Below, one piece after another: positions 1,039 to 64,000 of a DNA stretch of 64,000 bases. This DNA comes from an uncultured Chloroflexia bacterium (GTDB taxonomy: Bacteria; Chloroflexota; Anaerolineae; JAAYZQ01), in the NCBI GenBank assembly GCA_963700285.1, contig CAVOXA010000010.1, positions 288,001 to 352,000 on the forward strand, given 5' to 3'. The translations under genes were made by a program, and so were the position numbers. The number at the start of each line of letters is the position of its first letter. The first letter of the stretch is position 1. Below the pieces are notes generated by a model. The model did no database searches. It saw only the letters and a program-made list of their open reading frames with translations, and was not told the origin of the DNA.

Positions 1039-2034
1039 CTATGGCAGGGTGATGGTCTCTTCTGTTTCGGCTGAACGGTAGATAGCCAGAACGACCTCCA
1101 AGGACTTTAGGCCGTCGTTGGCAGTTATGGCCGGTTCGCGGTCCTCCTGAATGGCCGCGACAAACTCCTCCGCCTGCCGGCAAAAGTTATAGTGCTGGCC
1201 TAGCCGGCTAGCAGAGGTCTGAGTTTCCAGCCGGGTCTGCAGGCTGTTGCTGCTCACCTCCACCGCTTCGCGGGTGACGCGCAGCATCCCCTCGGTGCCA
1301 AAGATCTCGGTCTCCCACACAGACGGTTGGGCCCAGTAGGCGGGCGCGTTGGCTGTGGATGTGGCTACGGCGCCGCTGGCAAAGGTCAGCAGGGCTACGG
1401 CTCCATCCTCTACCTCAGAGTCCGGATCCCAGCGACGAACCTGGGCCGTGACGGAGGTGACCTCACTGCCCACCAGCCAGCGCAGGCGATCTATGGCGTG
1501 GATGGCGGTGTACATCATCACCCCGCCGCCGGCAGCCTCTTTCTGGGCCACCCAGGCGGGCAGCTCCGGTTTGCGCGGGGCATTCATCACGCTGCGAACC
1601 ACCTGGGGGAGGCCCACGCGGCCCTCGTCCAGCCACTGCTTTGCGAACTGGGCCTCGTCGCGAAAGCGGTGAACAAAGCTCATGGTCAGTTTGACACCTG
1701 CTGCCTGGCATAACTCGACGATGCGCCGGCCATCGTCGATGGTAGTGGCGATGGGCTTTTCCATCAGCACGTGGACGCCCTGCTCGGTGGCGGCCTCTGT
1801 GGGTTCCACATGCATATTGTGCGGGAGCCCCACCACGAGGATATCCAGGTCAAGGTCCATCAGGCGCCGCCAATCGGCGACGGCAACTCCACCAAAGCGA
1901 TCCGCCAGCGCCCCGGCCCGTTCTACGACGATATCGGCTGTGCCGGCGATGGTGGCTCCCTCCGTCGCCGCAAAGGCAATTGCGTGGCGCTCGCCCACCT
2001 GGCCCGCGCCAATGATTCCTACGCGCAATGTCAT
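1039..2034 (-). CDS. Gfo/Idh/MocA family oxidoreductase
   Basis: GIIGAGQVG Rossmann motif, EKPIA, GGGVMMYTAIHAID. GGAGG RBS. Confidence 0.92.
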   Translation of the reverse strand: MTLRVGIIGAGQVGERHAIAFAATEGATIAGTADIVVERAGALADRFGGVAVADWRRLMDLDLDILVVGLPHNMHVEPTEAATEQGVHVLMEKPIATTIDDGRRIVELCQAAGVKLTMSFVHRFRDEAQFAKQWLDEGRVGLPQVVRSVMNAPRKPELPAWVAQKEAAGGGVMMYTAIHAIDRLRWLVGSEVTSVTAQVRRWDPDSEVEDGAVALLTFASGAVATSTANAPAYWAQPSVWETEIFGTEGMLRVTREAVEVSSNSLQTRLETQTSASRLGQHYNFCRQAEEFVAAIQEDREPAITANDGLKSLEVVLAIYRSAETEETITLP

Positions 2035-2080
2035 GATCTACCCTCCATGAAAACTCGACCCGTTGCAGGGTTCCAGGCCT

Positions 2081-2097
2081 CAGACCTCCGAGGTCTG
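2081..2097. repeat. REP-like palindrome CAGACCTC-C-GAGGTCTG
   Basis: Perfect 8-bp arms in an intergenic gap. A related unit occurs at 24702-24791. Confidence 0.55.
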
Positions 2098-2115
2098 GTT
2101 GTGCGATCCAGATGT

Positions 2116-3387
2116 TCAGGCGGCTGACGGCCTGAGTCTAACACCGAATTGCAGCACACCCAAGCTCAGGAAGAAAAGGAATGTGGCAGCGTAAAAGATA
2201 ACGACCAGCCCGAAGGCGTCGCCAATGGACGCCGCGGCGAGAGGCGCCACGGCCCCTACGAGGCTGCCGGGCAGGAAGAACAGAGCAAAGGCCAGCCCCC
2301 GTTGTTTTCCAGGCGACAGCTTGGCCATGATCGCGGCAGTGGCCGCCATACCCAGAAAAGTCAAGAAGCCATAGGTCAGGTACAGAACAACAAAGCCCAC
2401 ATTGTTGGGAATGAGGAAAGCCAAGGCATAGCACACGTAGGACAGCGACAGGATGAAGAGAAGCCACCTCTTCTCTCCGTACCGTACGGCAAAAAAGCCA
2501 CCCAACACGGCGCCGGCGATCCCCACCAGCGTGTTGAGCCCGATGAGCGTACTGGCCGTAGGTCCAGAGAACGCCCTGTCGTCGACCATGTACAGGGCCA
2601 TGAAAGACTGGCTCATCGAGGTGGCCATCGACTTTACGGCAATGTAAATCAGGAACATGATCATGCTGGGCGTGAGCAGCGAAGAGAACCCAGCCTTGGG
2701 TGTACCAGCGGCGGTGACTACCCCCACGTCATCTTTTGGCGCGGATCGGAGGAACAGCACAGATACGATACCCAGTAGAAGGGGCAAGGCCCAAAACAGG
2801 TACACCTGCCGCCAACCGAAGGCAAAGACCCCCATCAAGATGGTGATTGAAAGGGGGCCAAGGGCCACGCCCAAAGTCCCACCGGCTCCGTGAAAGCCCA
2901 ACGCCTTGAGCCTGGCCCTGGGTTCGAAAAGCCTGGTGACAAAACTATAGGCTGCGGGGTGGTACACCGTAGTGTTGATGTACACGAGGCTGACAGCGAC
3001 GATCAACACGACAGGGGTGAGGGCCTGACTGGCCAGAAGAGCACCCGCGGTGGCGATAGCGAGAGCAACTACGATCATCAGCCTGGAACCGAACCTATCA
3101 GACAGCAAACCCGTAGGGATAGACAGGAGCGCCTGGCAGAGAGCAGGAATGGCAGCGATGAGGCCCAGTTGCTGGAGCGATAGGCTGAATTCGACCTGAA
3201 GGACAGGGAATAGCGTCGTGTGGATGCGGGTAAACACGTGCGTGAGCATGTGCGTCATGGTCATGACGAGCAGCCCATAACTGAATATCGATCTGTTACC
3301 CGCTACGGCGTCGGCTGTCCTACCAACCCAACCACGCCCCGCCGTTGGGGCACTCCCTTGATCGTCGTCAACGACGCTCGGAGCCAT
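2116..3387 (-). CDS. MFS transporter
   Basis: ~12 hydrophobic segments and motif A GLLSDRFGSR. ATG at 3387 is well spaced from GGGAGGG. Confidence 0.9.
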   Translation of the reverse strand: MAPSVVDDDQGSAPTAGRGWVGRTADAVAGNRSIFSYGLLVMTMTHMLTHVFTRIHTTLFPVLQVEFSLSLQQLGLIAAIPALCQALLSIPTGLLSDRFGSRLMIVVALAIATAGALLASQALTPVVLIVAVSLVYINTTVYHPAAYSFVTRLFEPRARLKALGFHGAGGTLGVALGPLSITILMGVFAFGWRQVYLFWALPLLLGIVSVLFLRSAPKDDVGVVTAAGTPKAGFSSLLTPSMIMFLIYIAVKSMATSMSQSFMALYMVDDRAFSGPTASTLIGLNTLVGIAGAVLGGFFAVRYGEKRWLLFILSLSYVCYALAFLIPNNVGFVVLYLTYGFLTFLGMAATAAIMAKLSPGKQRGLAFALFFLPGSLVGAVAPLAAASIGDAFGLVVIFYAATFLFFLSLGVLQFGVRLRPSAA

Positions 3388-3466
3388 AGTCACCCTCCCT
3401 TAATCTGCCGCGTCCCAGGCCAACCCGGATGCCGGTCAGATTCGAGCACTGTTCTGTCGCCAGCAA

Positions 3467-4084
3467 TCAGTGCGGTCTTTTGATCTCCAACACATAGGGT
3501 CTGTGGGCTGCTGTGCTGTGGAATTCTTTCCAGAAACCCAGCGATTCCTCCGGGGTCAGCAGACGTGTCAGCTTCAAGTAGACGGGATCCGCGCCCGGAA
3601 AAACAAAGGTAGGCGCACCAAACACGTCCAGCCCTTCGGCCCGCGAATGGTCTTTGGCCAGGCGATGCAGACAGGTTGGATCGACGAGCGCCTGCTCAAA
3701 GGCGGCCATATCGAGGCCGACCTGCGCTGCTACCGCGCGCAGCATCTCGGGCTCGCCCAGCTTTTGGCCCCGCTGATGTCTTTCGCGCAGCAAGGCTAGA
3801 TGAAAGCGTCGGAAAGCCTCTTCGCCCTGGCGCCGCGCCGCCTCAGCAGCCCAGAAAGCGCGAAGAGCCATGGCATAGCTCGACTCTTCCCAATCCTCGC
3901 CGCTCAGAGGCTGTTCCCAGACCTTCCAGGTATCCCCATTCTCATGATTCACCTGGTGCAGCGAGAAGAAACACCAGTGGATATCGAGTTCACCCGGCAA
4001 CGCCTCGTCAACACTCAGGAGCCACTCCGTGGCCCGATAAACGTACGGTCACACATAATCATAGTAGACATCAAATTCAATCAT
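3467..4084 (-). CDS. DsbA/FrnE-like thioredoxin-fold selenoprotein (205 aa; Sec at codon 12)
   Basis: GGGAGGG RBS + ATG at 4084 reads MIEFDVYYDYV-TGA-PYVYRATEW, in frame with the 177-aa ORF. The TGA (4051-4049) sits at the D-x-x-C-P catalytic Cys. cis-Pro motif VFGAPTF near the C-terminus. Confidence 0.8.
4019..4035 (-). promoter_or_regulatory. Candidate bacterial SECIS hairpin
   Basis: GGGCCAC-GGA-GUGGCUC 7-bp stem (one G-U pair) with a G-initiated loop 20 nt after the UGA. Confidence 0.6.
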
Positions 4085-4169: not shown

Positions 4170-5547
4170 TCAAGACGTGCGGTCCGCAAACTCCTGGAAG
4201 ATCGTCGCCGCGAACTTGATGCCCTGCATGTAGCGGTCGACGGGCATGTTCTCATTGGGCGCGTGCAGGTTGTTGTCGGGAGCGCCAAAACCACTCAGCA
4301 CCGCCGGGTGCGGAATGTGGATCATGATGATGCCCTGGGTGCTGACACCGGCGACCATCGGCGGCTCGCCCCAGACGCGCTCGGCGGCGTGGATGATGGC
4401 CTGGCTGATGGCCTCGCGTACGGGCGTCTTGTACGGATTGGGACGCGCCGCGCGCACGACGATCTCGACGTCGTCAAAGCCGTGCTTTTCCAGGTGCGCT
4501 TCCAGCTTCTTGAGCTGATCCAGCGGCTCCAGGTTGGGCGGGCAGCGAAAGTCGAGCTTGGCCGAAGCCTGGGTGGGCACGATGGTCTTGCTGCCCTCGC
4601 CCGTGTAGCCGGCCACCAGGCCATTGATATTGCACGATGCGCCATAGTGGATGGCCTTCAACAACTCCAGGTCATCGTCGAAGGGAAAGTCGCGGGTCAG
4701 GCCAAACTGGCGGCGCAGTATCTTCACGGTCAAAGTGGGCTCAGTTCCTCGCGCAGGTAGTACATATCATCCTCATCAGGGGGCAGCAGGTCGTCGTACC
4801 AGCCTTCGATGAGGATGCGGCCATTCGGCGTCGAACATGCTGTTCGAGACAGTGTACCAGCCGCCAGGGCGCGCTTTTGGCCTGCATCAACTGGGCCCGC
4901 CCGCTCCAAAAGTCGATCTCGTGGGTCTTGACCCGCAGTTCGACGACCAGGATGGCCTTGATGCCCAGGTGGATCTCGGGCTTGTAGGAGGTGCGATGCA
5001 CGCCGCCATCCAGCCCAATGCTGGCGTCGCACTGGCACAGGTCCTGATTGTTCAGCACCCATTCTTCGAGGTGGGGGCTGCCCATCTCCTCTTCGCCCTC
5101 AAAGAGGTAGACCAGGTTCACCGGCAGAGCGCCACGGACCTCTTTGAAGGCCCGCGCTGGCCCGGACCAGGGCCAGCACGCCCGACTTGTCGTCCGTAGC
5201 GCCCCGGGCATAGATCACGCCGTCGCGGATGTTGGCCTCAAAGGGCGGCTCGATCCATTTCTCCAGGGGCTCTGGCGGCTGGACGTCATAGTGGCCGTAG
5301 CACAGCAGCGTACTGGCGTTGGGATCCGCCGGCTTTTTCGGTGGCGTACACCAGGTCCGGCCCGCCAGGAACCGGAATGCGGCGGACATTGGTCAATGCC
5401 GTTGTCCAGCATCTGCCGCTTCAGCAGCTCCGCGCATTCGTCCAGCCCGATGTTCTGGGCGCTGATGCTCGGTTGACGGAGCAATTCTTGAAGCTCCGCG
5501 ACCTCTTCGTCGCGATGCTCTTCGATCCAATCATAGATGTCCTGCAT
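4170..5547 (-). CDS. M20/M25/M40 metallo-hydrolase (dipeptidase-like), split by several apparent frameshifts
   Basis: Fragments carry [32 protein letters not shown] and LHAPNE. GGAGG RBS. Confidence 0.85.
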
Positions 5548-5559
5548 GGTTATCCTCCC

Positions 5560-6937
5560 TTATTGTTGGCCATAGTACCACATGATAGCGGCCGCGTACT
5601 TGATCCCTTTGATATAGTGCTCCAGATCAACGCTCTCGTTGGGCGCGTGCAGATTGCAGTCGGGTTGGGCAAAGCCGGTGAGCACAGTGGGCATCCACAC
5701 GTGCTTGAGGATGGTGCCCTCGGCGCTGACGCCGCTGACCACCGGCGCGTTGCCAAACACCAGTTCGGCGGCCTGTATGATCGCCTGGCTGATGTCCTCC
5801 TTGACGCTGATTTTGAAGGGTGGCTCGGGCGTACCGGTCAGGAAGATCAGCTCAATGTCGCCAAAGCCGCGATCGACCAGGTGCTTGCGCAGCCTCTCGA
5901 CCGCTTTGTCGGGGTCGATATGAGGGGGTAGGCGCAGGTCCAGCTTGGCCCGGGCCTCGTTGGGCACGATGGTCTTGCCGCCTTCACCCTGGTAGCCGCT
6001 GGTCAGCCCGGCAATGTTGCAGGTCGGCTCGTACGGACTTGGCCATGAGGGCCTCTACTCCCTCGCGGCCCAGAGCAAACTGGTCAATGCCCCAGCCCTC
6101 TTTCATCTTGTCCAGGTCCAGGCGGGCAGCATTGGCCTCTAGCAGCTCGATCTCTTCCTCGCCCAGTTCGATGACCTCGTCGTACCAACCATCGACAAGA
6201 ATGCGCCTGTTTCCATCCACCAGGCTGTTGAGGGCGCGGACCAGATCCCAGGCCGGCTGAGGCAGCAATGGAGCGTTCTTGCTGTGGATGTCGGCGTTGG
6301 CTCCCCGGGCGATAAGCTCGATGAACATCACGCTTTTGAGGCCCAAGCCCACCCGGGGTACTAGTTCGCTGGTATCCACGCCACCGTCGAGGCAGTGCAT
6401 GGCATCGGCCTGCACCAACTCGGGGTTGGCCTCGATATAGGGTCCCAGGTGGGGCGATCCGATCTCCTCTTCCCCCTCGGTGATAAACTTGACGCCCACG
6501 GGCGGCTCGCCCAGGGTCTGGCACCAGGCTTTTGCCGCCTTGACAAAGGCCAGTACGCCCGATTTGTTGTCCGTCGCCCCCCTGCCCCACAGGCGGCCAT
6601 CGGCCAACTGGGCACTGTAGGGCGGATAGGTCCAAGCATCCAGCGGTTCGGGCGGCTGAACGTCATAGTGGGCATAGGCCAGCAAAATCTTGGGCGAAAG
6701 ACTGCTGGGCACATGGCCAAAGACACAGGGAGGCCCGCCCGGAAGGGGATGCGCCTTGCCATCCAATCCGTCGGCGTGCATGATCTCTACCACCAAGCCA
6801 GCGCACTCCTCAAGCCCTATCTTCTGGGCGCTGACGCTGGGCTGCTGTACCAGTCGCTGGAGATCGGCCATCGCCTCATCACGGTGGGCGTCGATCCAGT
6901 CGAACGCTGCCTGGAGTCTCGAATCAAGCTTGGTCAC
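5560..6937 (-). CDS. M20 metallo-hydrolase (dipeptidase-like), one apparent frameshift near 6040
   Basis: YAHYDVQP, GATDNKSG, EGEEE, HCLDGG, LHAPNE. Confidence 0.88.
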
Positions 6938-6973
6938 AAGAGCTATCCTTTCTATCCCACGCAGGTCATCAGC

Positions 6974-8056
6974 CTACAGCCATACCTGCGGAATGCCGTG
7001 CTCCTGATAGAAGGCACGCATCTGTAGGCGCTGGCCGGTTCGGGCAGCCTCGATGCAAGCCCGGGTCAGGGCAAGTGTCTTGAGATGGTCTTTCCCACTG
7101 GTCTCCACGGACCGACCTGACAGCAACGCCTCGACGAACTCGGCCAGCAGGCCCCGGGTATCGTCAACAAAGTGCTCGACCGGCTCGAGTTTGACGGACA
7201 GCAGGGGCTCCGCTTCGTGCTTGAATCGTTCCCCGGTCATTGCCAACTCTGGCGAAAACCTGACTACATAAAGGTCATCGAACTGGGCCTTCTGGATCAG
7301 GACGCCGCCCGAGCAATCGGTACGCCAGCGGAAGTTGAACTCGTTCCAGGCCGCGGTCCAGGTGCCCAGGTAGTTGACACGCAAGCCGCCCTCAAAACAG
7401 AGCAGGGCCGAGACGTTGCTGTCATCCTGGTAGACACTCCAGGGCGGGTTCCAGGTATCAGCCTGGACCCAGACCACCTCACGATCGTAGCAGTAGCGCA
7501 TCAGATCCAGGTGGTGGATCGATTGCTCGAGCAGCATGGGCTGCTCCTGGGTCAGGCAATGGTCATTCAGATCGGCCCGCCTGCCGTCACGATGGCGAAG
7601 GTAGGTGAACTGGGCAAAGGAGGGTTCGCCCAACAGTCGCTGGCGGATCGCGCGCTTGATCGCCTGGTGAGCAGGCAGGTAGCGAAAATTCATGCCTACC
7701 ATCAACTGCAGGCCACGCCTCTCCGCCTCACCGACGAGGTCAAGCGCCTCGGCCAGGTCCTCGGCCAGCGGTTTCTCGGCGAGCACGTGCATGCCCCGGC
7801 GAAAAGCCAGCATGATCTGTTCGTGGTGGACCTCTGGCGGCGTGGCCAACACCATGGCATCTGGCGCTGTCGCGTCAAGAGCGACAGGCAGGCTGGTGAA
7901 ACAGGGAACCCCCTGAGGGTCAAAAAGGCCCTCCGTGTTGAGGTCTGGAAAACGGCGGTCGACGTAGGCGACAGTCTCCGCATCCGCTTCTTCGCGGATG
8001 ACCCGGGCCCATTGCCTGCCTCTGACGCCGACGCCTACCAGGACTATCCTGATCAC
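6974..8056 (-). CDS. Gfo/Idh/MocA family oxidoreductase
   Basis: GTG start after AAGGAG. LVGVGVRG, EKPLA, EQSIHHLD. Confidence 0.88.
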   Translation of the reverse strand: MIRIVLVGVGVRGRQWARVIREEADAETVAYVDRRFPDLNTEGLFDPQGVPCFTSLPVALDATAPDAMVLATPPEVHHEQIMLAFRRGMHVLAEKPLAEDLAEALDLVGEAERRGLQLMVGMNFRYLPAHQAIKRAIRQRLLGEPSFAQFTYLRHRDGRRADLNDHCLTQEQPMLLEQSIHHLDLMRYCYDREVVWVQADTWNPPWSVYQDDSNVSALLCFEGGLRVNYLGTWTAAWNEFNFRWRTDCSGGVLIQKAQFDDLYVVRFSPELAMTGERFKHEAEPLLSVKLEPVEHFVDDTRGLLAEFVEALLSGRSVETSGKDHLKTLALTRACIEAARTGQRLQMRAFYQEHGIPQVWL

Positions 8057-8066
8057 GCTTTTCTCC

Positions 8067-9062
8067 TTAGGTACCGGGCTCAAGTAACGTTGGATGCGCT
8101 CTGGCCCAGGCGAGATAGCTGGACAACCCTGCCCGCAGGTCATACCTGGGTACAAAGCCAAACTCAGCCGTGGCCCTGCCGATGTCCAATACACTGCGGT
8201 CGCCCTCATGGGCGACCTCTACGGCCGCCATCTGGCCTGGCAGCCGATGGCCGAAAACGAAATCTGGCTCCAGGCCGTGCAGGGTTTCCAACACCTCGCC
8301 CAGGGAGTAGGCCGCTCCAGAGGATACATTATAGACATTGTGCTCGAGTTCGGCTGCCAGAGCGAGATGCCGCCAGATCACACCCGCGTCCGCCGCGTGG
8401 GCATAACAGCGCCTATTGGCCTCTCCCCTGGCCTGGACGGGCTGCCGGTCCAGGCAGGCGCGTACCAGGGTATAGATCACAGAAGGGCGGGTCCGCGTTG
8501 CGGTAGCCCGTTCCATGGGGCCATAGATCGAGGACATCCTGCCACTCACGGTCGACAGACCAAAGAGGCTCTTGTACCGTTTCAGGATCTGCTCGCTTGC
8601 GAGTTTGCAGATGACGTACAAACCCTGGGCCTTGACAGGGCTCCGTTCAGTCACGATGGTGTCCCTGTTCTCTACAGGCGCATAGACCCCGGATGAACTC
8701 ATGAGCACAAAGCGGTCAGCCGACACGGTTCGTGCGACATCCAGCAGGCTGACAGTACCCATCAGGTTCACGTTTACAATACGCTGCGGGTTGGCGCGTT
8801 CCATCTCAGCAGTCGGTGTAATGGCGGCCCCATGGACAAGGCGCCGCACCTCGTACCTCTCGGCCATCTCCAGCACAGCGGCGGTGTCCAACACGTCAGC
8901 CGTGACGAACCGGACCCTGTCCTGCAGCCCGCCCAAAAACTGGCGGTATGCTGGGCTTGCCGGGAACAGGTCCAGGGCAATAACCGCCTCGCCCGCCTCG
9001 GCAAGGGCATAGACGACGTGAGCGCAGGCAAAGCCAGTGGCCCCAGTCACAAGTGTGGTCAT
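8067..9062 (-). CDS. NAD-dependent epimerase/dehydratase (extended SDR)
   Basis: VTGATGF, SSSGVY, YVICK (YxxxK), IYGP. Confidence 0.9.
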   Translation of the reverse strand: MTTLVTGATGFACAHVVYALAEAGEAVIALDLFPASPAYRQFLGGLQDRVRFVTADVLDTAAVLEMAERYEVRRLVHGAAITPTAEMERANPQRIVNVNLMGTVSLLDVARTVSADRFVLMSSSGVYAPVENRDTIVTERSPVKAQGLYVICKLASEQILKRYKSLFGLSTVSGRMSSIYGPMERATATRTRPSVIYTLVRACLDRQPVQARGEANRRCYAHAADAGVIWRHLALAAELEHNVYNVSSGAAYSLGEVLETLHGLEPDFVFGHRLPGQMAAVEVAHEGDRSVLDIGRATAEFGFVPRYDLRAGLSSYLAWARAHPTLLEPGT

Positions 9063-9940
9063 TTGCGCGGCCGGTATCCTCTGCTGGTGGGATAGGGTTC
9101 GATCAACTCGATGGTGACACCGGTCGAGTACTCGGGGTAGATGAAAGCCTCAAAGCCATCGGGGCGGTTGGTAAAGATCTTGTGCTCAAAGATGGGGACT
9201 CCCTGACCCGTGACGCGAACGACGGCATCCCGAATATCGGCTACCTCGATGCAAAGGTGCTCTAGGCCTTCGCCTTTTTCATCCAGGAACTGGCGAACGC
9301 GGGCGTTTTCCCCCCAGCTCTCGGTCATGTGCAGCCAGAGGCGGTCGTTCCCGGGCTCGATCATGACGTCCTTCTGCTCGCCATCGTGCTGGTCGGTGCG
9401 CAGCGCGCGGGCGCGCAGATCAAACAGGCGCTCAAAGCCAGTGGCCGCTGCTTCCAGGTCGCGGACGGCTACGCCGATGTGCTGCAGGCCCAATACCCCC
9501 GAGTCACTAGTCGGGACAGCCGGCTCCCAGATTCCGGGAGCCGGCTGGAGCAACTCCACTGTGACGCCATGGAGATAGTCGCCAGGCACGGCAAAGCGGC
9601 GCCCCAGAGGCGTATCGATCAGGGCCCCATCCGCGAGATCCACGCCCGCCTGCCGAACCCGCTCAAATTCAGCCTCAACGTCGTCCGTCAAAAAGGCAAC
9701 TCGTTCGAGGCCCGGCCCTCTTTTGTTCAAAAAGCTGGACAGCGCCGACCCTGGCTGCCAGCTCTCCATGGCGTAGAGCCAGCAGCCATTGGGAAAGGCG
9801 ATACGTGCTCCCTTGTCCATCCCCAGGAAGGGATCGGGGTCCATGCGCTCCCCAGACAGGCCCAATAGATCCCGGAATGCGTGCCGCGTACGGTCGACAT
9901 CCTCCACGACAAAGCCCACGTAAAGTAACTCAAGAATCAC
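9059..9940 (-). CDS. Two-domain VOC family protein (methylmalonyl-CoA epimerase-like)
   Basis: C-domain QHIGVAV, GEGLEHLC, IELIE. The N-domain is homologous but degenerate (LYVGF, GLERV). Confidence 0.82.
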   Translation of the reverse strand: MILELLYVGFVVEDVDRTRHAFRDLLGLSGERMDPDPFLGMDKGARIAFPNGCWLYAMESWQPGSALSSFLNKRGPGLERVAFLTDDVEAEFERVRQAGVDLADGALIDTPLGRRFAVPGDYLHGVTVELLQPAPGIWEPAVPTSDSGVLGLQHIGVAVRDLEAAATGFERLFDLRARALRTDQHDGEQKDVMIEPGNDRLWLHMTESWGENARVRQFLDEKGEGLEHLCIEVADIRDAVVRVTGQGVPIFEHKIFTNRPDGFEAFIYPEYSTGVTIELIEPYPTSRGYRPRK

Positions 9941-10047
9941 GAATCTTGTCCCTCCTTCTGCTCATTGTCAAAGCCCTGACAGGTATCTCTTCCAGCTTTG
10001 AAGCTCTGCGCCCAGATGGTATAGGATGGCGCAGTGGATCAAACCTG

Positions 10048-11058: not shown

Positions 11059-11140
11059 ACTTGACCTCCTAGCACTTGATAATAACGTTACCACGATTTC
11101 GGCGAATACGCCCGCGCATGGGTGCGGGTTAGCGCTTGAA

Positions 11141-14452: not shown

Positions 14453-14465
14453 TTGATGCTCTCCT

Positions 14466-16551: not shown

Positions 16552-16614
16552 CGTTGCTCTGCCTTTCTTCACATCGAGCTTGCCTCGGAAGCCCGGACCC
16601 CCATGAGGACTTGG

Positions 16615-49133: not shown

Positions 49134-49150
49134 CCCTATACCCTCTCCCC

Positions 49151-50835: not shown

Positions 50836-51048
50836 CTATTTGTCCAACTGTACGTAGATGGCCAGGTCGGGACATCCGATCTCGCACAGCTTGCAGCCTA
50901 CACAGTCATCGAGGTCATAGACCTCAACCACCGAATAGCCCTTCTGATTGCGCCTGTCGGACATTCTCAACACGTTTCGCGGACAGTAATTTATACACAG
51001 GTCACAACCCTTGCACACTCTTTCGTCAATGTGGATCTTCACAATCAT
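50836..51048 (-). CDS. 2x[4Fe-4S] ferredoxin, 2-oxoacid:ferredoxin oxidoreductase delta subunit
   Basis: CKGCDLC...CP and CVGCKLC...CP. Confidence 0.92.
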   Translation of the reverse strand: MIVKIHIDERVCKGCDLCINYCPRNVLRMSDRRNQKGYSVVEVYDLDDCVGCKLCEIGCPDLAIYVQLDK

Positions 51049-51917: not shown

Positions 51918-51919
51918 GG

Positions 51920-53069: not shown

Positions 53070-53072
53070 GGC

Positions 53073-53651: not shown

Positions 53652-53759
53652 TCACATCCCTCTATCACTGTGCTCCAACGTGAGACACTCTTGCTCTGGC
53701 CAAAGGACAACCCGCGACGAACAGAGACTCTCGCCCGACCAGAGCAAATGGAGCCAGCG

Positions 53760-55738: not shown

Positions 55739-56920
55739 CTAGTCTTGTGATGAATGTCTCCATGCGATCGAAGGCTTCGACGATGTTGTCCATCGAGGTG
55801 GAATAGCACAGCCGCAGGGACGCCTTCTCCGCAGTGCGCCAAAGGCCGAGCCCGGCACCGTGGCCACGTGGGCCTCTTCCAGCAGCCTGTGGTCGCAAAC
55901 TCCAGCGACGGCATGTCCAGCCTGTAGGAGGGGAAGCGTATAGAACGCCCCCTGGGGCGGGACGCAGTCAAAGAACTCGGAGCGAGCCAGGATCAGGTCC
56001 AGGTCAGGTCGCACCGCTCCTTGTAGCCGGCCATCATCTGCTGCAGACGCAGCCCGGGACTCTGCGCTGGTCAGGGCTTCAAGTGCCCCGGCCTGGGCAA
56101 AGGCGGTGACACAGGTAGCCGAGTGCTGGTAGATCTTGACCATGCCATCCAGGATCTCGCTGGGGCCGGTGACATAGCCCAGCCGCCAGCCGGTCATGGC
56201 ATAGCTCTTGGAAAAGCTGTTGACGGTGACCACGTTGTCATACTCAGAGGCCGGGCTGTAGTGCTCGCCTTCGTAGACCAGGTACTCGTAGACCTCGTCG
56301 GACAGCAGCAGGGCGCCATGGCGCTCGGGCGATCTCGGCGATGCCCGCAGGCTGTCGCCGAATCATAGACCGCGCCGGTGGGATTGTTGGGCGAGCTGAT
56401 GACGATGATACTTGACCGAGCCGTCCATCGCAGCCTCACATGTCGTCCAGGTCGGGCTGGAACCCGCTGGCTGGCGCTGACAATCGACAGTCACCAACTC
56501 AGCGCCGGCCAGTTGAGCCATCGACTTGTAGGACACCCAGGCCGGCTCCAGGACCATCACCCGGTCGCCCGGTTCGAGCATGGCCTGGAAGGCCAGATAG
56601 ATGGCGAACTTGCCGCCGGGCGTGACAATGATGTCCTCCGGCGCCGGCGATTTATGCCATTCTCCCGTTGGAGCTTTTGCGCGATGGCCTCGCGCAGTTC
56701 GTAGGTCGCCAGTGGTGGGCTCATACTTGGTCTTGCCAGCCTGCATCGCCTCGCTCGGCGGCATCCTGGATGTTCTGGGGGGTGTCAAAGCAAGGCTCGC
56801 CCCGCCCAGGGAAATGATGTCGTCGATCCCGGCCCGGCGCATGCGCTTGACAATGTTGTCAACTTCGTCCGTAGCCGAGAGTTCCAGGTTGGCGACCTTG
56901 TCCGCTACTTTGTAACCCAT
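55739..56920 (-). CDS. PLP-dependent class I aminotransferase (aspartate aminotransferase-like), multiple apparent frameshifts; end approximate
   Basis: TPGGKFAI, PNNPTG, DEVY, SFSKSYAMTGWRLG, GAFY. GGAGG RBS. Confidence 0.85.
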
Positions 56921-57098: not shown

Positions 57099-57945
57099 CT
57101 ACCCGGCAGCCTTCACGTCAGTCAAAGGGACACGTTCCACTTTCACTTGTGGCAGATCCAGGAATCTGGCCGTGAAAGAACCAAAGTTGGCTTGGTCATC
57201 ACCTGTGATCAGAAACTGGTATCTGCCGGATCCCAGTACCTGTGATCTGAGCGCCCCGGCATCCCGAAGGATCTGGTGTGCTTCTCTGACCACCTCTTCG
57301 GCGGGGTCTACGACCGTGACGTCCTCGCCAGCTACTTGCTCGGCAATGTCTCGCACACAGGTCAGGTCGGTACAGCCCAGAATCAGGGTATCTATACCCA
57401 CGCTGGCCAAAGGCTCAAAATAGCCCTGGGCTAAGGACAAGAGATGGCGTCGATCGTCGATCTGACCTTTCTCCGCCAGGCGCAAGAGTTCGGGACAGGT
57501 TGCGCCAAATACCTCCATGTCCGGGTTGAGCCGCAGAATCTGTTGGTCATAGGCCTTGCTGTCGATCGTGATGGCCGTGCCCCACACCCCAATGCGGCTG
57601 CCTGGACTGGCGGCCAGGGCAGCGCGGACACCAGGGCCGATCATACCCAGCACGGGCAGATTGGGGAAGCGTTGCTGGGCAGCTTCTCGCCCGGCCACGC
57701 TGGCCGTATTACAGGCAATGATCACCAGCTTGACCCCTCGTTGTGCCAGATAGCCGGTGTTCTCTACTGCATAGTGCCGTACAGCTTCCAGCGGCTGGGG
57801 GCCATAGGGTTGTCGAGCCGTATCTCCCCAAAAAGAGCACGTCTTCGTACGGCAGCAAGCGGCGTACCTCTCGAAGAACCGCCAGTCCCCCTAGCCCCGA
57901 ATCAAAAACGCCGATTGGGGCATCTGAACCCACGTTGGCTGACAT
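57099..57945 (-). CDS. murI: Glutamate racemase-like enzyme, one apparent frameshift (extra G near 57826)
   Basis: IGVFDSGLGG, GDTARQPYG, ACNTAS, LGCTDL. AGGAGG RBS. Confidence 0.85.
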
Positions 57946-58020
57946 GCCAGCTACCTCCTTGATCTCAACACAGAGCGGAACGTGTAAGGCCATTGTACAC
58001 CCAAAGCTCCGAACCGTAGA

Positions 58021-58034
58021 TATCCTATAGGCTA
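58021..58034. promoter_or_regulatory. Second operator copy TATCCTATAGGCTA (13/14 match to 38947-38960)
   Basis: Lies 6 nt downstream of the -10 box of the 58041-58069 promoter. Confidence 0.72.
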
Positions 58035-58040
58035 TTTTCT

Positions 58041-58069
58041 ATGATATCACAAAATACACAGGGTGTCAA
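58041..58069 (-). promoter_or_regulatory. Sigma70-type promoter TTGACA-N17-TATCAT with extended -10 TG
   Basis: -35 at 58069-58064, TGA-TATCAT with -10 at 58046-58041. Confidence 0.8.
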
Positions 58070-58160: not shown

Positions 58161-58313
58161 GGATCGCCCAGTCAAGGGATACTTTGCAGCAACCCTGTTC
58201 GAGCCAAGGGCCCGTGGCCTAGGCCCGGATCGCGGGCTCTCAGGGCATGCAGAATGGCACAGTGCTCAGGGATGAGCACCAGTACCTCTTCAGCGGCGTA
58301 TCCAAATCCATGG

Positions 58314-59325
58314 CTAAACACGCTCGGGCCGGCCACCGTCACGAGCCGAGCGGTAGAGCGCCTCGATTACCTTCATGCCAGCCCCAGCTTCCGCAGGTGG
58401 ATAGCGCACCGGCGTCCCCGAATGGACGCTGTCGCCAAAGTGCTCGACCATGAGTTGGTACTCGTCCACACCCGGGATCTTGTGCGCAATCGAATCCTGC
58501 CGGCCATGGTGCTCAAGGATCGTGGTGTCGCCGGTACCGGGCAGAAAAGCGGATTGGACGTCGAGGTGACCTTCCGGTCCCGCTACCTGATAGAACTCTC
58601 GCCGCTCGAGGGTCAGGCCACAACTGAACTGGGCCAGGAGCCCATTGGCGAAGCGCAGCGTGCCGGTCATCTCTTCGTCCACGCCCGTCTTGCCCCAGTT
58701 GGCGTAGGCCTGAACCTCTACCGGTTCGCCGGCGCCTGGAATGACCCCGGCTACGGTACGGATGATATTCACGCAGTAGCAGCCGACGTCCATCAGCGAG
58801 CCGCCGCCCAACTCGCGCACAAACCGGATATTCTCTGGATTCGTCAGGCGGAAGGTAAAGGCGGCATAGAATCAACCGGGGCTCACCGATGGCCCCACTC
58901 TGCACGAGTTCAAGCACCATCTCCGTCTGCGGGTGAAAGCGGTACATGAAGGCTTCCATAAAGACCACCCCGTGCTGCTGGGCAGCGGCCTCCATCTCCC
59001 GGCATTCGGCTGCGTCCAGGGCCAAGGGTTTTTCACAGAGGATATGCTTGCCCGCTTCAGCAGCCTTGATGGCCCATTCCCGATGCAGGCTGTTGGGCAG
59101 CGGGATATAGACCGCATCTATGTCGTCCGCAGCGAGCAATGCTTCATAGCTGCCGTAAGCTCGGGGAACCCCAAGCTTGTCTGCGAAGGTCCGTGCCTTC
59201 TCCTCGTCCCGGCTGGCAACTGCCACGAGTTCGCCATTCCTGGAATGTTGGATCGCCGGCAGCACAGCAGCGCGCCCGATATTCGCCGTACTGATTACAC
59301 CCCATCTCAATGCTTTTTCTGCCAC
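58314..59325 (-). CDS. Gfo/Idh/MocA family oxidoreductase, apparent frameshift near 58860
   Basis: WGVISTANIG, YIPLPNSLH, CEKP, EAFMYRFHP, GGGSLMDVGCY. Confidence 0.9.
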
Positions 59326-59358
59326 GGTTCCCCCTCTCTTGACATTCGAAATGAGAGA

Positions 59359-60189
59359 TCAGTCCGGATAGCTTGCCTGCCATGCGAGCCGCGTCTCGAA
59401 ATCCTCCACATAAAGTGTCACCTTTTCGGGACTGAACTCGAATTCGTAGCCCTCGGCGGCAATGGTGTCCGCCAGGGGGCCGGCATCAAAGCGAAGGCCG
59501 GTGAAGCGGTCGGGCGGCTGGGATGCCAGCCAGACAAAGGCCGTGCCTAATTCCGCCGGATCAGCCCAGGCCGCTTTTTGCTCCGCGGGCATGGCATCGA
59601 ACTGCTCCCAGGTCAGGTCGGTGGTCTTGATCGGCTTGCCCGGTCCTATGGTGTTGATAGCAATCCTTTGATCGGCAGATTCCAGGGCCAGCGCCTTCAC
59701 GAATCCCTCCTGTCCATGTTTTCCGGTACAGTAGGTCACCTCATCCTTGTAGCCCCGGACACTGGAGCCACTGGCAATGCCGATGATGTGCCCACCTCCT
59801 TGAGCTACCATGACATTCCAGGACGCCCGAGTGGCGTTAAAGATGCCGCCCAGGCTGATCTGTAGCTGGCGCCACCACAACTCGGGGGACGTCGCCTCGA
59901 AGCGGATCAGGGGCATGTACACAGCGTTCTGCACCACCACGTCCAGGCGCCCCCAGCGGGCTACCACCTGATCCACGGCCTCCTGGAAAGCCGTCAGGTC
60001 GCTCACATCCAGATGTAGGGCCATGACTTTAGATCCGTCGGCCCGCAGATCGGCTTCGGAGCGCGCCAATTCGTCGCTGATGTCGCTAACGCAGACTCTC
60101 GCCCCGGCGCGGCCCAGCGCCCGGGCGATGCCCCAACCAAAACCTCGTCCCGCGCCAGTGACCAGGGCCACTTTGTCTTCAAGTATCAT
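59359..60189 (-). CDS. SDR family oxidoreductase
   Basis: TGAGRGFG, QNA, YCTGK. Confidence 0.88.
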   Translation of the reverse strand: MILEDKVALVTGAGRGFGWGIARALGRAGARVCVSDISDELARSEADLRADGSKVMALHLDVSDLTAFQEAVDQVVARWGRLDVVVQNAVYMPLIRFEATSPELWWRQLQISLGGIFNATRASWNVMVAQGGGHIIGIASGSSVRGYKDEVTYCTGKHGQEGFVKALALESADQRIAINTIGPGKPIKTTDLTWEQFDAMPAEQKAAWADPAELGTAFVWLASQPPDRFTGLRFDAGPLADTIAAEGYEFEFSPEKVTLYVEDFETRLAWQASYPD

Positions 60190-60210
60190 GTTCAAAATCC
60201 TCTCTAGACT

Positions 60211-61128
60211 CTACCGTTTCATATGCGGGTCCAGCGCATCGCGCAGCCCGTCGCCCAGGAGGTTGATGGCCAGCACGGTGACCATGATCGCCAATCCGGG
60301 GAAGGTCGTGATCCACGGCGCGGCGCGCAGATAGTTGCGGCCACTCGCTCAGCATCAGCCCCCATTCTGGCGTGGGAGGCAGCGCCCCCAGACCCAAGGA
60401 AACTGAGGGCCGCGCCGGCGATGATGGCACCGGCTACGCCCAGGGTGGCCACCACGACGAGGGGACCCAGGATGTTGGGCAGAATATGGCGCGAAATGAT
60501 GCGCTGGGGGCGACAACCGATGCAGATGGCGGCCTCGACGAATACATCGGCCTTTGGTCTTCAGCACCATGCCCCGCGTCACCCGGGCATAGGTCGGAGC
60601 AGCCGAGATGCCCACCGCCACCATGGCATTGAACAGGCTGGGACCCAGTACGGCAATGATAACCAGCGCCAGCAGGATCCCTGGAAAGGCCAGGGTGATG
60701 TCCACCAGGCGCATGACGAGGGTGTCTGTGCGACCTCCGAAGAATCCGGATAGCAGCCCACTGGTCACACCCAGTAAGGCGGCAATGGTCACCGAGACGA
60801 TGCCCATCCGCAGCGAGATGCGGCTGCCATAGACGAGCCGGGTAAAGATATCCCGGCCAAACGAGTCCGTACCAAACCAGTACTGGGCGCTGGGAGGCTT
60901 CAGCCGCTCGGAGGCAACGATCTCGATGGGATCGTAGCGGGTGACATAGGGCGCAAAGAATGGCAGCCAGGATGAGCACGGACAGGATCACGGCTCCCGT
61001 CACCGAGCCGGGATTCCGGATCAGACGGCGAAAGGCGTCGGCCCAGAGGGAACGAGCCCTGCCCAGTTCCCCCTGCTGGCAGTGCTCAGGCGGCACCGTG
61101 TATCCCGGACGTGGTCGATCTCACTCAT
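60211..61128 (-). CDS. dppC: Dipeptide/oligopeptide ABC permease (DppC type), multiple apparent frameshifts
   Basis: [39 protein letters not shown] across frames. Confidence 0.82.
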
Positions 61129-62053
61129 AGCGAATCCTCGGATCCAGGACCGCATAGGAAAGATCGACCAGGATGTTGGTGACCATCATAAAGATGGCTA
61201 TCATGAGCGTAAGTCCCTGCACCATGGTGATGTCCTTGTTCAAGATCGACTCGACGTACATCCTGCCCAGACCGACACGGGCAAAGATGGTCTCGGTCAG
61301 GACCGCGCCGCTCAGTAGCCCGCCGAACTGCAGGCCCAGCACGGTGATGGCCGGGATGAGCGCGTTGCGCAGGGCATGGCGGATGACCACCCCGCGTTCG
61401 CGCAGTCCCTTGGCCCGCGCGGTGCGGACATAGTCCTCGCTCATCACCTCCAACATGCTGCTGCGCACCAGGCGGGCGAGGGTGGCCGAACTGAGGAGGC
61501 CGAGCGCAAGAGCCGGCAGTATGAACCGGTCCAGGCCGCCCTGCCCCATTGGCGGGAACCACTGCAGTTGGACGGAGAAGAAGAAAATGAGCATCAGACC
61601 CAGCCAGAAGACCGGCATGGAGACGCCCACCAGGGCCATGCCCATGGAAAGGCTGTCCACCCAGGTGTTGTGCCTGAGGGCGGAGATGACCCCCAGGCTG
61701 ACGCCAAGTACGGTACTGATGAGCAAGGCGGTCAAGGCCAGTTCCAACGTGTAGGGCAGTGCGTCAAGGATCTGTTGCGTTACAGGCTGATTGTTGAAGA
61801 GGGAAGCTACCCAGGTCGCCACGTAGGACGCCCCCACATGTAGGACAAGTACTGGATGTGGAGAGGCCGGTCGAGCCCCATGTCGTGGCGCACCTGCTGC
61901 CAGGAGTTCCGGCGAGCTCTGCTTCTCTCCCAAAAAGATCTCGGCCGGATCTCCGGGGACCAGTTGGAGCATCAAGAAGACCAGCACCGTCACGGCGAGG
62001 ATGGTGGGGATGGTGACCAGCAGCCGCTGAGCCGCATAACGGGTCATTGTCAT
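61121..62053 (-). CDS. dppB: Dipeptide/oligopeptide ABC permease (DppB type), compensating frameshifts near 61800-61910
   Basis: PGDPA, SMPVFWLG, DYVRTARAKGL, ETIF. Confidence 0.88.
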   Translation of the reverse strand: MTMTRYAAQRLLVTIPTILAVTVLVFLMLQLVPGDPAEIFLGEKQSSPELLAAGAPRHGARPASPHPVLVLHVGASYVATWVASLFNNQPVTQQILDALPYTLELALTALLISTVLGVSLGVISALRHNTWVDSLSMGMALVGVSMPVFWLGLMLIFFFSVQLQWFPPMGQGGLDRFILPALALGLLSSATLARLVRSSMLEVMSEDYVRTARAKGLRERGVVIRHALRNALIPAITVLGLQFGGLLSGAVLTETIFARVGLGRMYVESILNKDITMVQGLTLMIAIFMMVTNILVDLSYAVLDPRIRYE

Positions 62054-62156
62054 TGGAGTTCCGACCTCCTCTAAGGCCGTCCTAGCGGTCTGAGACAGAC
62101 CATAGCCCATCTGGAGAGTCGCTGCCGGCAAGACGAGCTTGGCTCAGTCAGAGCGG

Positions 62157-62196
62157 GGCAGGTGCGCCCACAGGAAAGGCAGTGGCGCAGCCTGCC
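62157..62196 (-). other. Imperfect hairpin between the solute-binding protein and permease genes (mRNA stabiliser)
   Basis: GGCAGG-TGCGCC...GGCGCA-G-CCTGCC stem, in the same position as the hairpin at 36963. Confidence 0.45.
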
Positions 62197-62249
62197 GCAG
62201 AGAACCGTCAGGTGCGCCTGAGCACGCCTGCGACTATTCAGTCAGCATG

Positions 62250-64000
62250 CTACCGTGCCGCACCAAAGTAGGGGAAGGCACCAGCCAGATAGTACATGAC
62301 GACGTTCTCGAGGCCGGTATCGTGGGCATAGAGCAGCACGGGGTCGAGCCAGGTCTCCATGTGCGCCTCCTCTTTGACCTTCTTGAGGACATCGCAGACG
62401 AGCTCGGCCCGCTTCTCCGGATCTGGCTCGGCAGCCTGAGCCTCGATCAGGGCGTCCATCTCCGGGTCGACATAGTTGTTGCGGTTCGTGCCGCCGTGGA
62501 TGTTGCTGCTGTGCAGCACACCGCGCAGCATCATGTCGGGATCGGTCGTCCACTCTGACCAGCTCTGGGTGTTGTGCTCGCCAGAGCGCACTGCGTCAAA
62601 GTAGCCGCTGCGAGCTCAGGCCGTGGAGCTCGACCTCGACGCCGATCTTGGCAAAGTTGTCCTTCAGGAACGCGGCCATCATTGCTCCAGCTCGCAGCAT
62701 CAGCCCGGTAGTAGTGGCCTACGACCAACTTCTGCGCCGTCCTTTTCGCGGATGCCATCGCCGTCCTCGTCCACCCAACCAGCTTCCTCCAGCACCTGAT
62801 TGGCTGCTTCCAGATCGTAGGGGGCGATGTCGCAGGTTTCGGCGCAGTACCCAAACACCGAGCTGGTGATGAGGGCACAGGACGGTCGCCGTATCCCGTT
62901 AAAGACGGTGTCGATCATACCCTGCTTGTCCATGGCCAACTGCATCGCCTTGCGGACGGCCAGTTCATCGGTGGGTGCGCGCTCGTGGTTGAACATCAAG
63001 GCGTCGCCCATACCAGCCTGGGGCATCTCGACGGCGGTGAAGGCGGGGTCAGCCTCCAGAGTCGGGAAATCAACCTCGCAGGACCTCGTCCAGGAAGTCG
63101 ATCTCACCGGTCAGTAGAGCCGCTGTGCGGGTCGCCGGTTCGGCGATGAACTTGTAGACGATCTTGTCGACCTTGGCCGGCCCGTCAAAGCCCAGCTCTG
63201 GCGGCCCCCAGTTGTAGTCGGGGTTGCGGACCATGACGACCTCGTTGTCGAGGATCATCGACTCAAACATGTAGGGACCGGTGCCCACAAACTTGTGCAT
63301 ACCCCAGGCGTAGCCGCCTGTCTCCACGGCCGTAGGCGAGACAGGGGTCAGATAAGGCCCGGAGACACTGTCCAGGAAGGGGGCGTAGGGTTTGGAGAAC
63401 TTGACAATGACCTCGTAGTCGTTGACGATCTCCGTCTCCAGGTACGGCCCGATCACGCTCAGGCCCATCTGGGACTTGTTGCGCGGGATCTACGATACGA
63501 TCGAAGGTGAATTTGACCGCTTCGGCATTGAAAGGCGTGCCGTCGTGGAAGGTGACATCGTCGCGCAGCTTGAAGGTGTATTCGGTCGCGTCCTCGTTGA
63601 CCGACCATTCGGTGGCCAGGCCGGGCACAAACACGCCCGGCTCGACCTGCCAGATCAAAGGATCGGTCATGTGTAGGGTCATGCGTCCCACACGGGTGAA
63701 GGTGGTGATGTTGGGATCGAGGATGTCAAAGCCGCTGGGCATGCCGATGACGACGGTAGTCTCGTCGGCTGCCTCGATTTCTGCGGCCTCGGGGGTGGCG
63801 GTGACGACCATCTCTACCTCGACGATCTCGGTCACCACCTTTTCCACCACCTTTTCCACTACCTGGGACGTGCCCTCGACGATGACCGTCTCCTGCACGA
63901 CCTGGGTGATGACCTTTTCAACCTCCTGGGTCACCACCTTCTCAACCTCAACCACCTCAGGTTCGGGCGCTGCGCCACAGCCAGCAAGAACCAAACTGCT
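62250..64000 (-). CDS. ABC solute-binding lipoprotein, family 5, 5' truncated, several apparent frameshifts
   Basis: Lipobox LAGC, V/E/K/T-rich linker, LDP, FHDGTPFNAEAVKF, GTGPY, DGDGIREKDG. Confidence 0.88.

Follow-up and report, generated by a model that had tools for sequence, protein, structure and literature searches.

GntR-FCD proteins are ligand-released repressors. Murein-peptide catabolism relies on the set MppA, MpaA, YcjG and PepD, with an enolase-family epimerase and an MpaA-type M14 amidase; fructosamine catabolism (frl) on a SIS-domain deglycase and a PfkB kinase; and ectoine catabolism on the M24 protein EutD, the AstE-type EutE, a class III aminotransferase and EutBC. Catabolism from amino acid to 2-oxoacid that conserves energy is described in an excerpt of PMC11032458; serine palmitoyltransferase has one active site per heterodimer, according to an excerpt of PMC6148460; and as of 2020, ATPase sharing had been reported for CUT1 sugar importers only, as an excerpt of PMC7658222 states. 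Here, we analyze 64,000 nucleotides (the window, C10:288,001-352,000) of contig CAVOXA010000010.1 (C10), from the genome of an uncultured Chloroflexia bacterium (G000; assembly GCA_963700285.1; 7.05 Mb, 89% complete, 6.5% contaminated). The window holds the downstream part of a very long run of catabolic genes on the minus strand. We read this run as one regulon for the predicted scavenging of small peptides and modified amino acids, likely repressed by its own GntR-FCD protein, and we give this reading a probability of about 0.6.

Same-strand runs were called with our own dicodon model, trained on G000. The run occupies C10:289,047-388,332 (99.3 kb), comprises about 86 genes, 56 of them inside the window, and is the longest of 904 in the genome, where the median is 3.9 kb, the 99th percentile 46 kb and the second longest 87.6 kb. 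An initial annotation had described a single-strand extent of more than 60 kb; that extent is real, but the run continues 36 kb past the window, with about 30 further catabolic genes, a third family-5 ATP-binding cassette (ABC) set and the GntR-FCD gene. Its estimate of about 56 minus-strand genes agrees with our tally at 1039-64000, in which the intact orthologs of a same-genus genome (G001) were used to join frameshifted pieces. A Pfam scan of 106 minus-strand open reading frames (ORFs), hand-picked from 167 of at least 95 amino acids, yielded 20 C-N hydrolases of nine families or superfamilies, where about 20 from at least eight had been announced: seven of the amidohydrolase superfamily (four Amidohydro_1, Amidohydro_2, Amidohydro_3 and PTE), four M20, two M24, two isochorismatases, and one each of M14, M18, M28, AstE and the beta-lactamase fold. 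The three aldolases, the RidA gene, the two peptide-type ABC sets (family-5 solute-binding protein (SBP), OppB and OppC) and the ATP-yielding module (2-oxoacid:ferredoxin oxidoreductase and succinyl-CoA ligase) were likewise recovered, as were the seven or more dehydrogenases, with nine NAD(P) oxidoreductases counted. Four aminotransferase-family genes are present as claimed, but one lacks the pyridoxal phosphate (PLP) lysine. A crude hydropathy and lipobox check (not SignalP) flagged SBPs and permeases only, in keeping with the claim that most products lack a signal peptide. On the plus strand, a Pfam match was found in one of 149 ORFs of at least 101 amino acids, and that ORF lies at 2-958, outside 1039-64000.

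Joint control is suggested by a palindrome, first seen in intergenic gaps of G001, that is repeated behind promoters of the form TTGACA-17-TAnnnT. At one mismatch or fewer, the 14-mer TATCCTATAGGATA has four sites in the 7-Mb genome, all inside the run (window 38947, window 58021, C10:375,664 and C10:388,466) and each 6-9 bases behind a -10 box. The promoters that bear it are the sole four minus-strand promoters of at least 10/12 in the run, against 951 such promoters genome-wide. Since the motif was found in the run's own gaps, its place in the run does not count as independent evidence; what does count is that the rest of the genome lacks it, and how it is spread over other genomes. The 58021 site would head a unit of about 19 kb, from the racemase to a 2-hydroxyacid dehydrogenase, and the 38947 site the last unit of the run, of about 38 kb. 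Terminator scans of positions 1-60000 gave weak hits, close to chance and uninformative. A two-mismatch palindrome lies at C10:549,017, at a 12/12 promoter divergent from a LysR-like gene, and is probably the site of another regulator.

G001 carries the same four sites and G005 three perfect ones; among the matches listed, perfect copies occur in G000, G001 and G005 only. In G005, the same promoter-palindrome arrangement precedes the ortholog of the SBP of ABC set C, and in G011 a one-mismatch site heads the orthologous operon. The claim that the window has no regulator did not survive: none is intact there, but a GntR remnant lies at 58214-58294, and an intact GntR-FCD gene of the same run lies upstream of the window (C10:376,884-377,585). 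At the position of the remnant, four relatives have an intact GntR gene: in G005 and G011 it separates the Gfo/Idh/MocA gene from the racemase, and in both G013 and G018 it immediately precedes the racemase. Close orthologs of the run's GntR occur in five of the 301 genomes of the class (G000, G001, G005, G011 and G061), and the strict promoter-plus-operator pattern in three of five tested genomes (G005, G013 and G018, not G011 or G061). In G013 the GntR gene is immediately preceded by the promoter-operator, and in G005 by an operator-like site, which fits an autoregulated repressor. Two features expected of a GntR-FCD regulon are visible in sequence: the repressor gene is linked to the genes, and the palindrome tracks the repressor across genomes, with the exceptions of G061 and, for the strict pattern, G011. 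It is likely that one GntR-FCD repressor binds the palindrome and controls four long units. Paper listings of an open-access library showed no description of the regulon, its operator or its inducer. Two further observations were made: three DUF885-like genes lie in the regulon (L001:15085-16758, L002:717-3606), and their orthologs head operator-controlled units in G005 and G011; and the GntR position of G001 (L048:16750-19700) holds a 2.8-kb insertion with a transposase-like fragment, a lipoprotein gene with a palindrome-like site, an SBP fragment and a different GntR remnant.

Several points weigh against a single repressed regulon of this kind. The GntR homolog of G061 (46% identical) has no promoter-operator match, and G011 fails the strict pattern. 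G000 itself encodes two extra paralogs of the run's GntR, 61-63% identical, either of which could be the binder. A further 17 of the 301 genomes, G011 among them, have one or two one-mismatch sites, a frequency near that of the reversed control pattern, so that single sites mean little. The gene content behind the operator varies between genera, and a 38-kb transcript is long; weak internal promoters may exist. No MurI-type gene besides the racemase was found in G000 and G001, murD is present, and the racemase may also serve cell-wall synthesis. Most run enzymes fall below NCBIfam equivalog cut-offs and have no assigned substrate. Alternatively, the run could be a loose pile of independent co-oriented operons in which the palindrome controls the promoter-nearest genes only. 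The second-longest run marks long runs as a trait of this genome, the 64 Amidohydro_1 matches of the genome are spread over many contigs, and tandem paralogs of the run differ between G000 and G001; but no further minus-strand promoter of at least 10/12 lies in the run, terminator-like matches are weak, and many genes overlap or are less than 40 bases apart, so we consider such a pile quite improbable.

The reading as one regulon gains from a conserved core. The order GntR-racemase-aminotransferase-KorABG-SucC(D) is kept together in G005, G011, G013 and G018 (on two contigs in the last), and the cassette is found in six genomes of four genera among the 23 genomes of the family. In the examined stretches of these four genomes, 24 of the 56 window genes have orthologs that are 59-87% identical. 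The conserved sub-modules for which the initial annotation had proposed to look therefore exist, as the whole run in G001 and as the core cassette elsewhere, and its claim of one coherent cytoplasmic uptake-and-breakdown unit is borne out by conserved synteny and by blocks that share one operator-like site.

The racemases of the cassette form a clade (63-75% identical) separate from ordinary MurI (33-43%), and G005 and G018 carry both. The nearest solved relative is glutamate racemase; compared with the MurI motifs CNTA and GCTH, both cysteines are present and the histidine is replaced by aspartate. The D-aminoacylase-family enzyme is nearest to D-aminoacylase and N-acyl-D-glutamate deacylase among solved proteins, the DHDPS-family gene is nearest to 4-hydroxy-2-oxoglutarate aldolase (E 4e-73 vs. 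2e-40 for DHDPS), and the nearest solved relatives of other run hydrolases include arginine carboxypeptidase Cc2672 and biuret hydrolase. G000 has another oxidoreductase and ligase set at C10:835-839 kb. When 75 G001 proteins were compared with NCBIfam, few passed the cut-offs (M18 aminopeptidase, oxidoreductase alpha, ligase subunits, Rid and broad subfamilies). D-Glutamate and N-acyl chemistry is plausible, and these likenesses point to glutamate-like cores released from acyl, carbamoyl and peptide bonds. The substrates first proposed stand in part: D-amino-acid, N-acyl and N-carbamoyl compounds fit the MurI-type racemase, the D-aminoacylase family, the ureido-hydrolase-like isochorismatases and the 2-oxoacid-to-succinyl-CoA module, but glycated peptides and classical murein-peptide recycling are not supported. 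A class A beta-lactamase-fold protein (30507-31331) has no signal peptide and lies inside a peptidase operon; rather than conferring resistance, it probably acts as a D-peptidase-type hydrolase in the cytoplasm.

A pathway devoted to peptidoglycan fragments or to glycated amino acids could be argued from the MurI-type racemase, the D-aminoacylase family, the beta-lactamase-fold and M14 hydrolases, the family-5 SBPs, the sugar-type Gfo/Idh/MocA enzymes and DegT. We judge it very improbable: none of the eight enolase-family matches (PF13378) of G000 lies in the run, which leaves it without an enolase-family L-Ala-D/L-Glu epimerase; none of the eight SIS-domain matches does either, which leaves it without a SIS deglycase; the 563-aa M14 protein has weak matches to carboxypeptidase T and animal carboxypeptidases only; and the Pfam scan of the window contains no NlpC/P60, amidase_2 or sugar kinase. 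As labels for the run, we accordingly set aside murein-peptide catabolism, whose epimerase lies outside it, and fructosamine catabolism, whose deglycase lies outside it and whose PfkB kinase is missing from the window scan. Ectoine catabolism was rejected as well: M24 and AstE proteins are present, but neither a class III aminotransferase nor a cyclodeaminase was found in the window scan. A hydantoinase route does not belong to the run, since the cyclic amidohydrolase, hydantoin racemase and carbamoylase sit in a convergent plus-strand unit (C10:285-289 kb) behind a different box.

We hypothesize that an imported metabolite binds the FCD domain, whereupon the repressor would leave its operators and four long units (about 13, 30, 19 and 38 kb) would open. 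Substrates would enter through three family-5 SBP/OppBC sets that borrow OppD/F ATPases from other loci. In the next step, some 30 paralogous C-N hydrolases could strip acyl, carbamoyl and peptide bonds in the cytoplasm, while dehydrogenases, VOC proteins and 4-hydroxy(-methyl)-2-oxoglutarate-type aldolases would process the carbon skeletons. In the core, D-glutamate or a close analogue would be converted to the L-form and transaminated, and the 2-oxoacid oxidized to succinyl-CoA with ferredoxin, yielding ATP. The regulon may have grown by module capture, for example of the DUF4438/split-aminotransferase module, which elsewhere is under another GntR box.

A different possibility is that the regulon serves one compound or class, such as a cyclic amide or a glutamate-containing natural product, with the paralogs as steps or variants of one undescribed pathway. 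One operator and one repressor imply one inducer, G011 has a compact version of about 20 genes behind one operator, and the DUF4438 module has a fixed partner set across phyla. Nevertheless, each genus has a different gene set behind the operator, DUF4438 is missing from G005 and G011, the window has no close orthologs of three common DUF4438 partners, and three unrelated SBPs suggest several ligands; we therefore hold a single pathway to be unlikely and keep to a scavenging regulon with several substrates.

The tandem DUF4438 genes of the window belong to a recurrent arrangement: an ordered a-b pair is found in 20 of 23 genome loci, in Chloroflexota, Armatimonadota, Alphaproteobacteria and Deinococcota, and copy b in seven of the 301 class genomes. 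Cultured Aureimonas strains (L033, L034) are among the carriers of the module. Copy a keeps the His/Asp residues of single-gene members, whereas copy b has them replaced, and one natural protein (P0002) fuses two copies. TM1086 is matched by copy a and copy b alike (E 2e-67 and 5e-61), and the model of copy a matches TM1086 only (Z 32.8, root-mean-square deviation 2.5 over 262 residues; next Z 7.1). Fold searches gave no DUF4438 relative beyond TM1086 and the Atlas gave DUF4438 clusters only; a missing match excludes nothing. In structure prediction, the a/b complex scored 0.57 against 0.00 for the best control, with runs agreeing in at least 97% of contacts and a partner pLDDT of at least 91. 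Of 157 solved complexes, 116 reached the mark, as did two of 215 mismatches; with scores of 0.60 or less, only 18 of the 157 did so, together with both mismatches. This lends weak support to an a/b complex, and as TM1086 is a solved oligomer, the pass may stem from likeness to it. Listings of the open-access literature gave no paper on DUF4438 and, for TM1086, none that was evidently on its function. One lead, that DUF4438 is the arginine synthetase ArcE, was dropped: the excerpt of PMC11032458 likens ArcE to cyclic 2,3-diphosphoglycerate synthase and mentions neither the DUF nor TM1086. A third, single-gene member of the TM1086 type occurs in G000 at L016 (C1:1,425,900).

The most frequent neighbor of DUF4438 is an Ldh_2 dehydrogenase, in 11 of 21 locus groups, followed by cyclic amidohydrolases (10), aminotransferases and VOC proteins (9 each) and peptide ABC genes (7). 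Close orthologs of three of these partners are missing from the window, where the best Ldh_2 match is 35%, the best cyclic amidohydrolase 36%, and the single-domain VOC protein has no match. G078, from another family, has seven neighbors of the module in common, at 59-82% identity. Elsewhere, the module stands behind a GTCGACAATCGAC-type box; in G000 this box precedes the GntR gene of the convergent hydantoinase-type unit and is absent from the run, from which it appears likely that the module was rewired into the run's regulon.

Directly beside this pair lies a pair of class I aminotransferase-like genes that have lost complementary residues. Gene a (12304-13509) has lost the PLP lysine and kept the HYT motif and a KQ-M-IC segment; gene b (11141-12307) has kept the lysine, NPT and DEIY and lost the HY tyrosine of the solved relative 1DJU. 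The pattern is consistent: all 16 a rows lack the lysine and have the tyrosine, all 14 adjacent b rows have the lysine and 13 lack the tyrosine, and both residues are present in the 19 control aminotransferases, hand-picked from the same scan. The window and L022 are counted among the rows, but two b genes are not, that of L024 being split and that of L137 truncated at a contig end. DUF4438 played no part in finding four of the pairs (L071, L103, L137 and L150). Among 78 metagenome loci of the scan, 22 hold DUF4438 genes, beside intact aminotransferases, and across the phylum the lysine-less profile, applied with a strict cut-off that misses short forms, hit two of 401 genomes. The HY tyrosine is presumably equivalent to Tyr70. 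From the reciprocal loss of lysine and tyrosine, we predict a heterodimer with a single active site. Tyr70 is listed as a ligand of the PLP phosphate, with Tyr70* marked as coming from the adjacent subunit, in an excerpt of PMC6715241. No description of such a class I pair was found in the open-access literature. At L142:7803-9041, an intact aminotransferase combines a-type HYTDRPG and KLALSIC elements with the PLP lysine, and may resemble a state before the split.

The initial annotation was right that the window has no ABC ATPase gene; none lies between C10:245.7 kb and 508.4 kb, and contig C10 contains no peptide-type one. As a special feature of this locus the absence does not stand: G000 has 33 OppB/C clusters in 32 loci, of which eight adjoin an OppD/F-type ATPase and 24 have no ABC ATPase within 6 kb. 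OppC_N matches outnumber ATPase pairs at least about fourfold in G000, G001, G002, G005, G007, G028 and G039, whereas most of the 41 genomes searched show no such excess. The lack being a genome-wide trait, these gene counts point to peptide-type importers that share ATPases encoded elsewhere, and the census adds a clear case for sharing among importers of this type. Neither an OppB tree (26 rows) nor a quick OppC tree (27 rows), from which fragments of less than 170 amino acids were left out, separated ATPase-less from ATPase-linked permeases (132 and 33 of 500 shuffles were as low). Two fused OppD-OppF ATPases of about 700 amino acids, at C14:4.1-6.5 kb (L005/L013) and C5:129-131 kb (L006/L007), are candidate shared motors.

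About 24 of the 56 window genes are frameshifted in the assembly; in G001 they are single ORFs, except the SBP at 62.2-64 kb. The extra base at 37954, in the SBP of set C, is missing from short-read contigs of three public runs, and those at 22549, 23627, 52134, 54741, 56636 and 56649 from contigs of one public run each, although public runs cover small shares of the stretch only. Given these missing bases and the intact ORFs of G001, most of the frameshifts are likely assembly errors; they are not enriched at homopolymers. The same holds for an apparent M20-isochorismatase fusion of 714 amino acids (43844-45988), which we rejected: G001 has two genes and one extra base in the assembly is the likely cause, the junction lying outside short-read coverage. 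Contigs from RNA libraries of two studies cover the SBP at 37.2-38.9 kb and little else, which is no proof of transcription or co-expression. Two structural differences from G001 were noted: the AtzA-type amidohydrolase at 26427-27197 has about 740 bases fewer, in frame (a real deletion or a collapse), and G001 has two tandem 2-hydroxyacid dehydrogenases at a spot where the window has one.

These frameshifts and the contamination of the genome bin could be taken as signs of a chimeric assembly, of decay into pseudogenes or of recent acquisition from a foreign source, but such a reading has next to no chance of being correct. G001 is collinear with the entire run, with intact genes and about 90% nucleotide identity, which speaks against the chimeric contig that had been named as a danger to the original proposal, and several of the breaking bases are missing from independent short-read contigs. 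The GC content of the run is 0.58-0.64 (contig 0.608), the window contains no tRNA and no Rfam family, and no tRNA or integrase marks a boundary; the run is therefore not a recent foreign island, the sense in which the earlier word "island" fails. The coordinates of the window's features are collected in Table 1.

Table 1. Features of the analyzed window, in window coordinates.
Feature	Position	Strand	Basis
Downstream 63 kb of the 99.3-kb catabolic run	1039..64000	-	Pfam scan and run model
Peptide-type ABC set B: family-5 SBP (broken in assembly), OppB, OppC; no ATPase	60200..64000	-	
SDR and Gfo/Idh/MocA oxidoreductases, in a block conserved at family level	58314..60195	-	
GntR-FCD gene remnant	58214..58294	-	18/27 identical residues
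Sigma-70-type promoter TTGACA-17-TATCAT (58069-58041), then operator-like palindrome with 1 mismatch (58021-58034)	58021..58069	-	Conserved in G001
MurI-type amino-acid racemase; both cysteines present, GCTD instead of GCTH	57099..57993	-	
Class I aminotransferase of core cassette; frameshifted in assembly, intact in G001	55739..56920	-	
2-Oxoacid:ferredoxin oxidoreductase alpha, beta, gamma; ADP-forming succinyl-CoA ligase beta, alpha; ferredoxin subunit	50839..55717	-	
Amidohydro_2, SDR, D-aminoacylase-family enzyme, two-domain isochorismatase-family hydrolase, M20 peptidase and isochorismatase, PTE-family hydrolase	42869..50772	-	
RidA, two D-2-hydroxyacid dehydrogenases, M18 aminopeptidase	39033..42842	-	
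Sigma-70-type promoter TTGACA-17-TACAAT (38997-38969), then perfect palindrome TATCCTATAGGATA (38947-38960)	38947..38997	-	
Peptide-type ABC set C: lipoprotein SBP, OppB, OppC; no ATPase	35032..38718	-	
M28, M20, beta-lactamase-fold hydrolase, RraA-type aldolase, 4-hydroxy-2-oxoglutarate-aldolase-like enzyme (GSNGE motif), two AtzA/PRK06151-type amidohydrolases, second RraA-type aldolase	25811..34883	-	
Aldo-keto reductase, M24, M14, two-domain VOC protein, AtzA-type and Xaa-Pro-dipeptidase-type amidohydrolases, second M24, DegT-family aminotransferase	15388..25705	-	
Tandem DUF4438 pair, copies a and b	13571..15326	-	
Class I aminotransferase-like protein without PLP lysine, with HYT and KQ-M-IC elements	12304..13509	-	
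Class I aminotransferase with PLP lysine, without HY tyrosine; start overlaps stop of lysine-less gene	11141..12307	-	
AstE/aspartoacylase-family deacylase, two-domain VOC protein, NAD epimerase, Gfo/Idh/MocA oxidoreductase, two tandem M20 peptidases	4170..11094	-	
DsbA-like protein, MFS transporter, Gfo/Idh/MocA oxidoreductase; run end, convergent on hydantoinase-type unit	1039..4000	-	

Further catabolic loci surround the run on the same contig. The convergent plus-strand unit at C10:274.7-289 kb (L003:6738-19626, window 2-961) encodes a GntR paralog, an ATPase-less family-5 ABC set, an amidohydrolase, RidA, DegT and M20, followed by a second GntR behind the GTCGACAATCGAC box, a hydantoin racemase, the cyclic amidohydrolase and an M20 carbamoylase-like gene; half of the run's palindrome is present as a half-site in the first promoter of the unit. 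Upstream, a cluster at C10:392-412 kb (L054) includes an amidinotransferase-like gene, thiamine pyrophosphate enzymes, an ATPase-less family-5 ABC set, a PfkB kinase that, we assume, resembles fructoselysine kinase, and what we take to be a trimethylamine-methyltransferase-like gene. The 87.6-kb second run (C10:456-544 kb, L055-L059) contains aldolases, Ldh_2, D-aminoacylase, DegT, aldo-keto reductases and an ABC set, with no copy of the palindrome.

Taken together, the regulon is probably under a single repressor, conserved, of unusual size and built of known kinds of parts, with two probable new heterodimeric enzymes. We offer more tentatively, as a possibility that we would not bet on, that it encodes an undescribed ATP-yielding route for D-glutamate-containing or cyclized nitrogen compounds widespread in sediments and soils, fed by ATPase-sharing peptide importers and employing two new single-site heterodimeric enzymes, DUF4438 a/b and the split class I aminotransferase. 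If true, these would be the first activity for the DUF4438 fold and the first split class I aminotransferase, and the substrate could be told from the effector of the GntR protein. With its repressor, its operator, its three binding proteins and the conserved core, the regulon offers direct handles on the diet of abundant uncultured Chloroflexota, and the inducer would give context to some 30 orphan C-N hydrolases, to the DUF4438 fold and to the reciprocally degenerate aminotransferase pair.

Compared with described systems, the run resembles catabolic regulons of the GntR/FadR subfamily (GntR plus FCD) in having the repressor gene in the cluster, a palindrome just behind the -10 box and a site before the repressor gene in relatives; it differs from the typical ones in its mostly unassigned enzymes and in its about 86 genes, 99 kb and four promoters. 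The core cassette joins in one operon the enzyme families of the racemase-aminotransferase-2-oxoglutarate:ferredoxin oxidoreductase-succinyl-CoA ligase route of Thermococcales and other anaerobes; here, however, a MurI-type racemase heads the cassette, the oxidoreductase and ligase are a second, dedicated copy, and the activities are predicted. As in the CUT1 systems served by the multitask ATPases MsmX and MsmK, many importer loci have no ATPase gene and few ATPases are encoded elsewhere, but the importers of the run are peptide-type, with family-5 SBP and OppBC, and sharing among them is predicted from gene counts. Both DUF4438 copies match the family of TM1086 (PDB 3DCL, 3N99; PF14505, PF20999), whose genes are single, whereas the window has an ordered a-b pair between which the conserved residues are divided. 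Finally, the aminotransferase pair recalls LCB1/LCB2 of serine palmitoyltransferase, where one partner is without the PLP lysine and the other has it; unlike LCB1/LCB2, the two proteins, encoded here by adjacent genes, are bacterial and catabolic class I aminotransferases (closest solved relative 1DJU), and their loss of residues is reciprocal.

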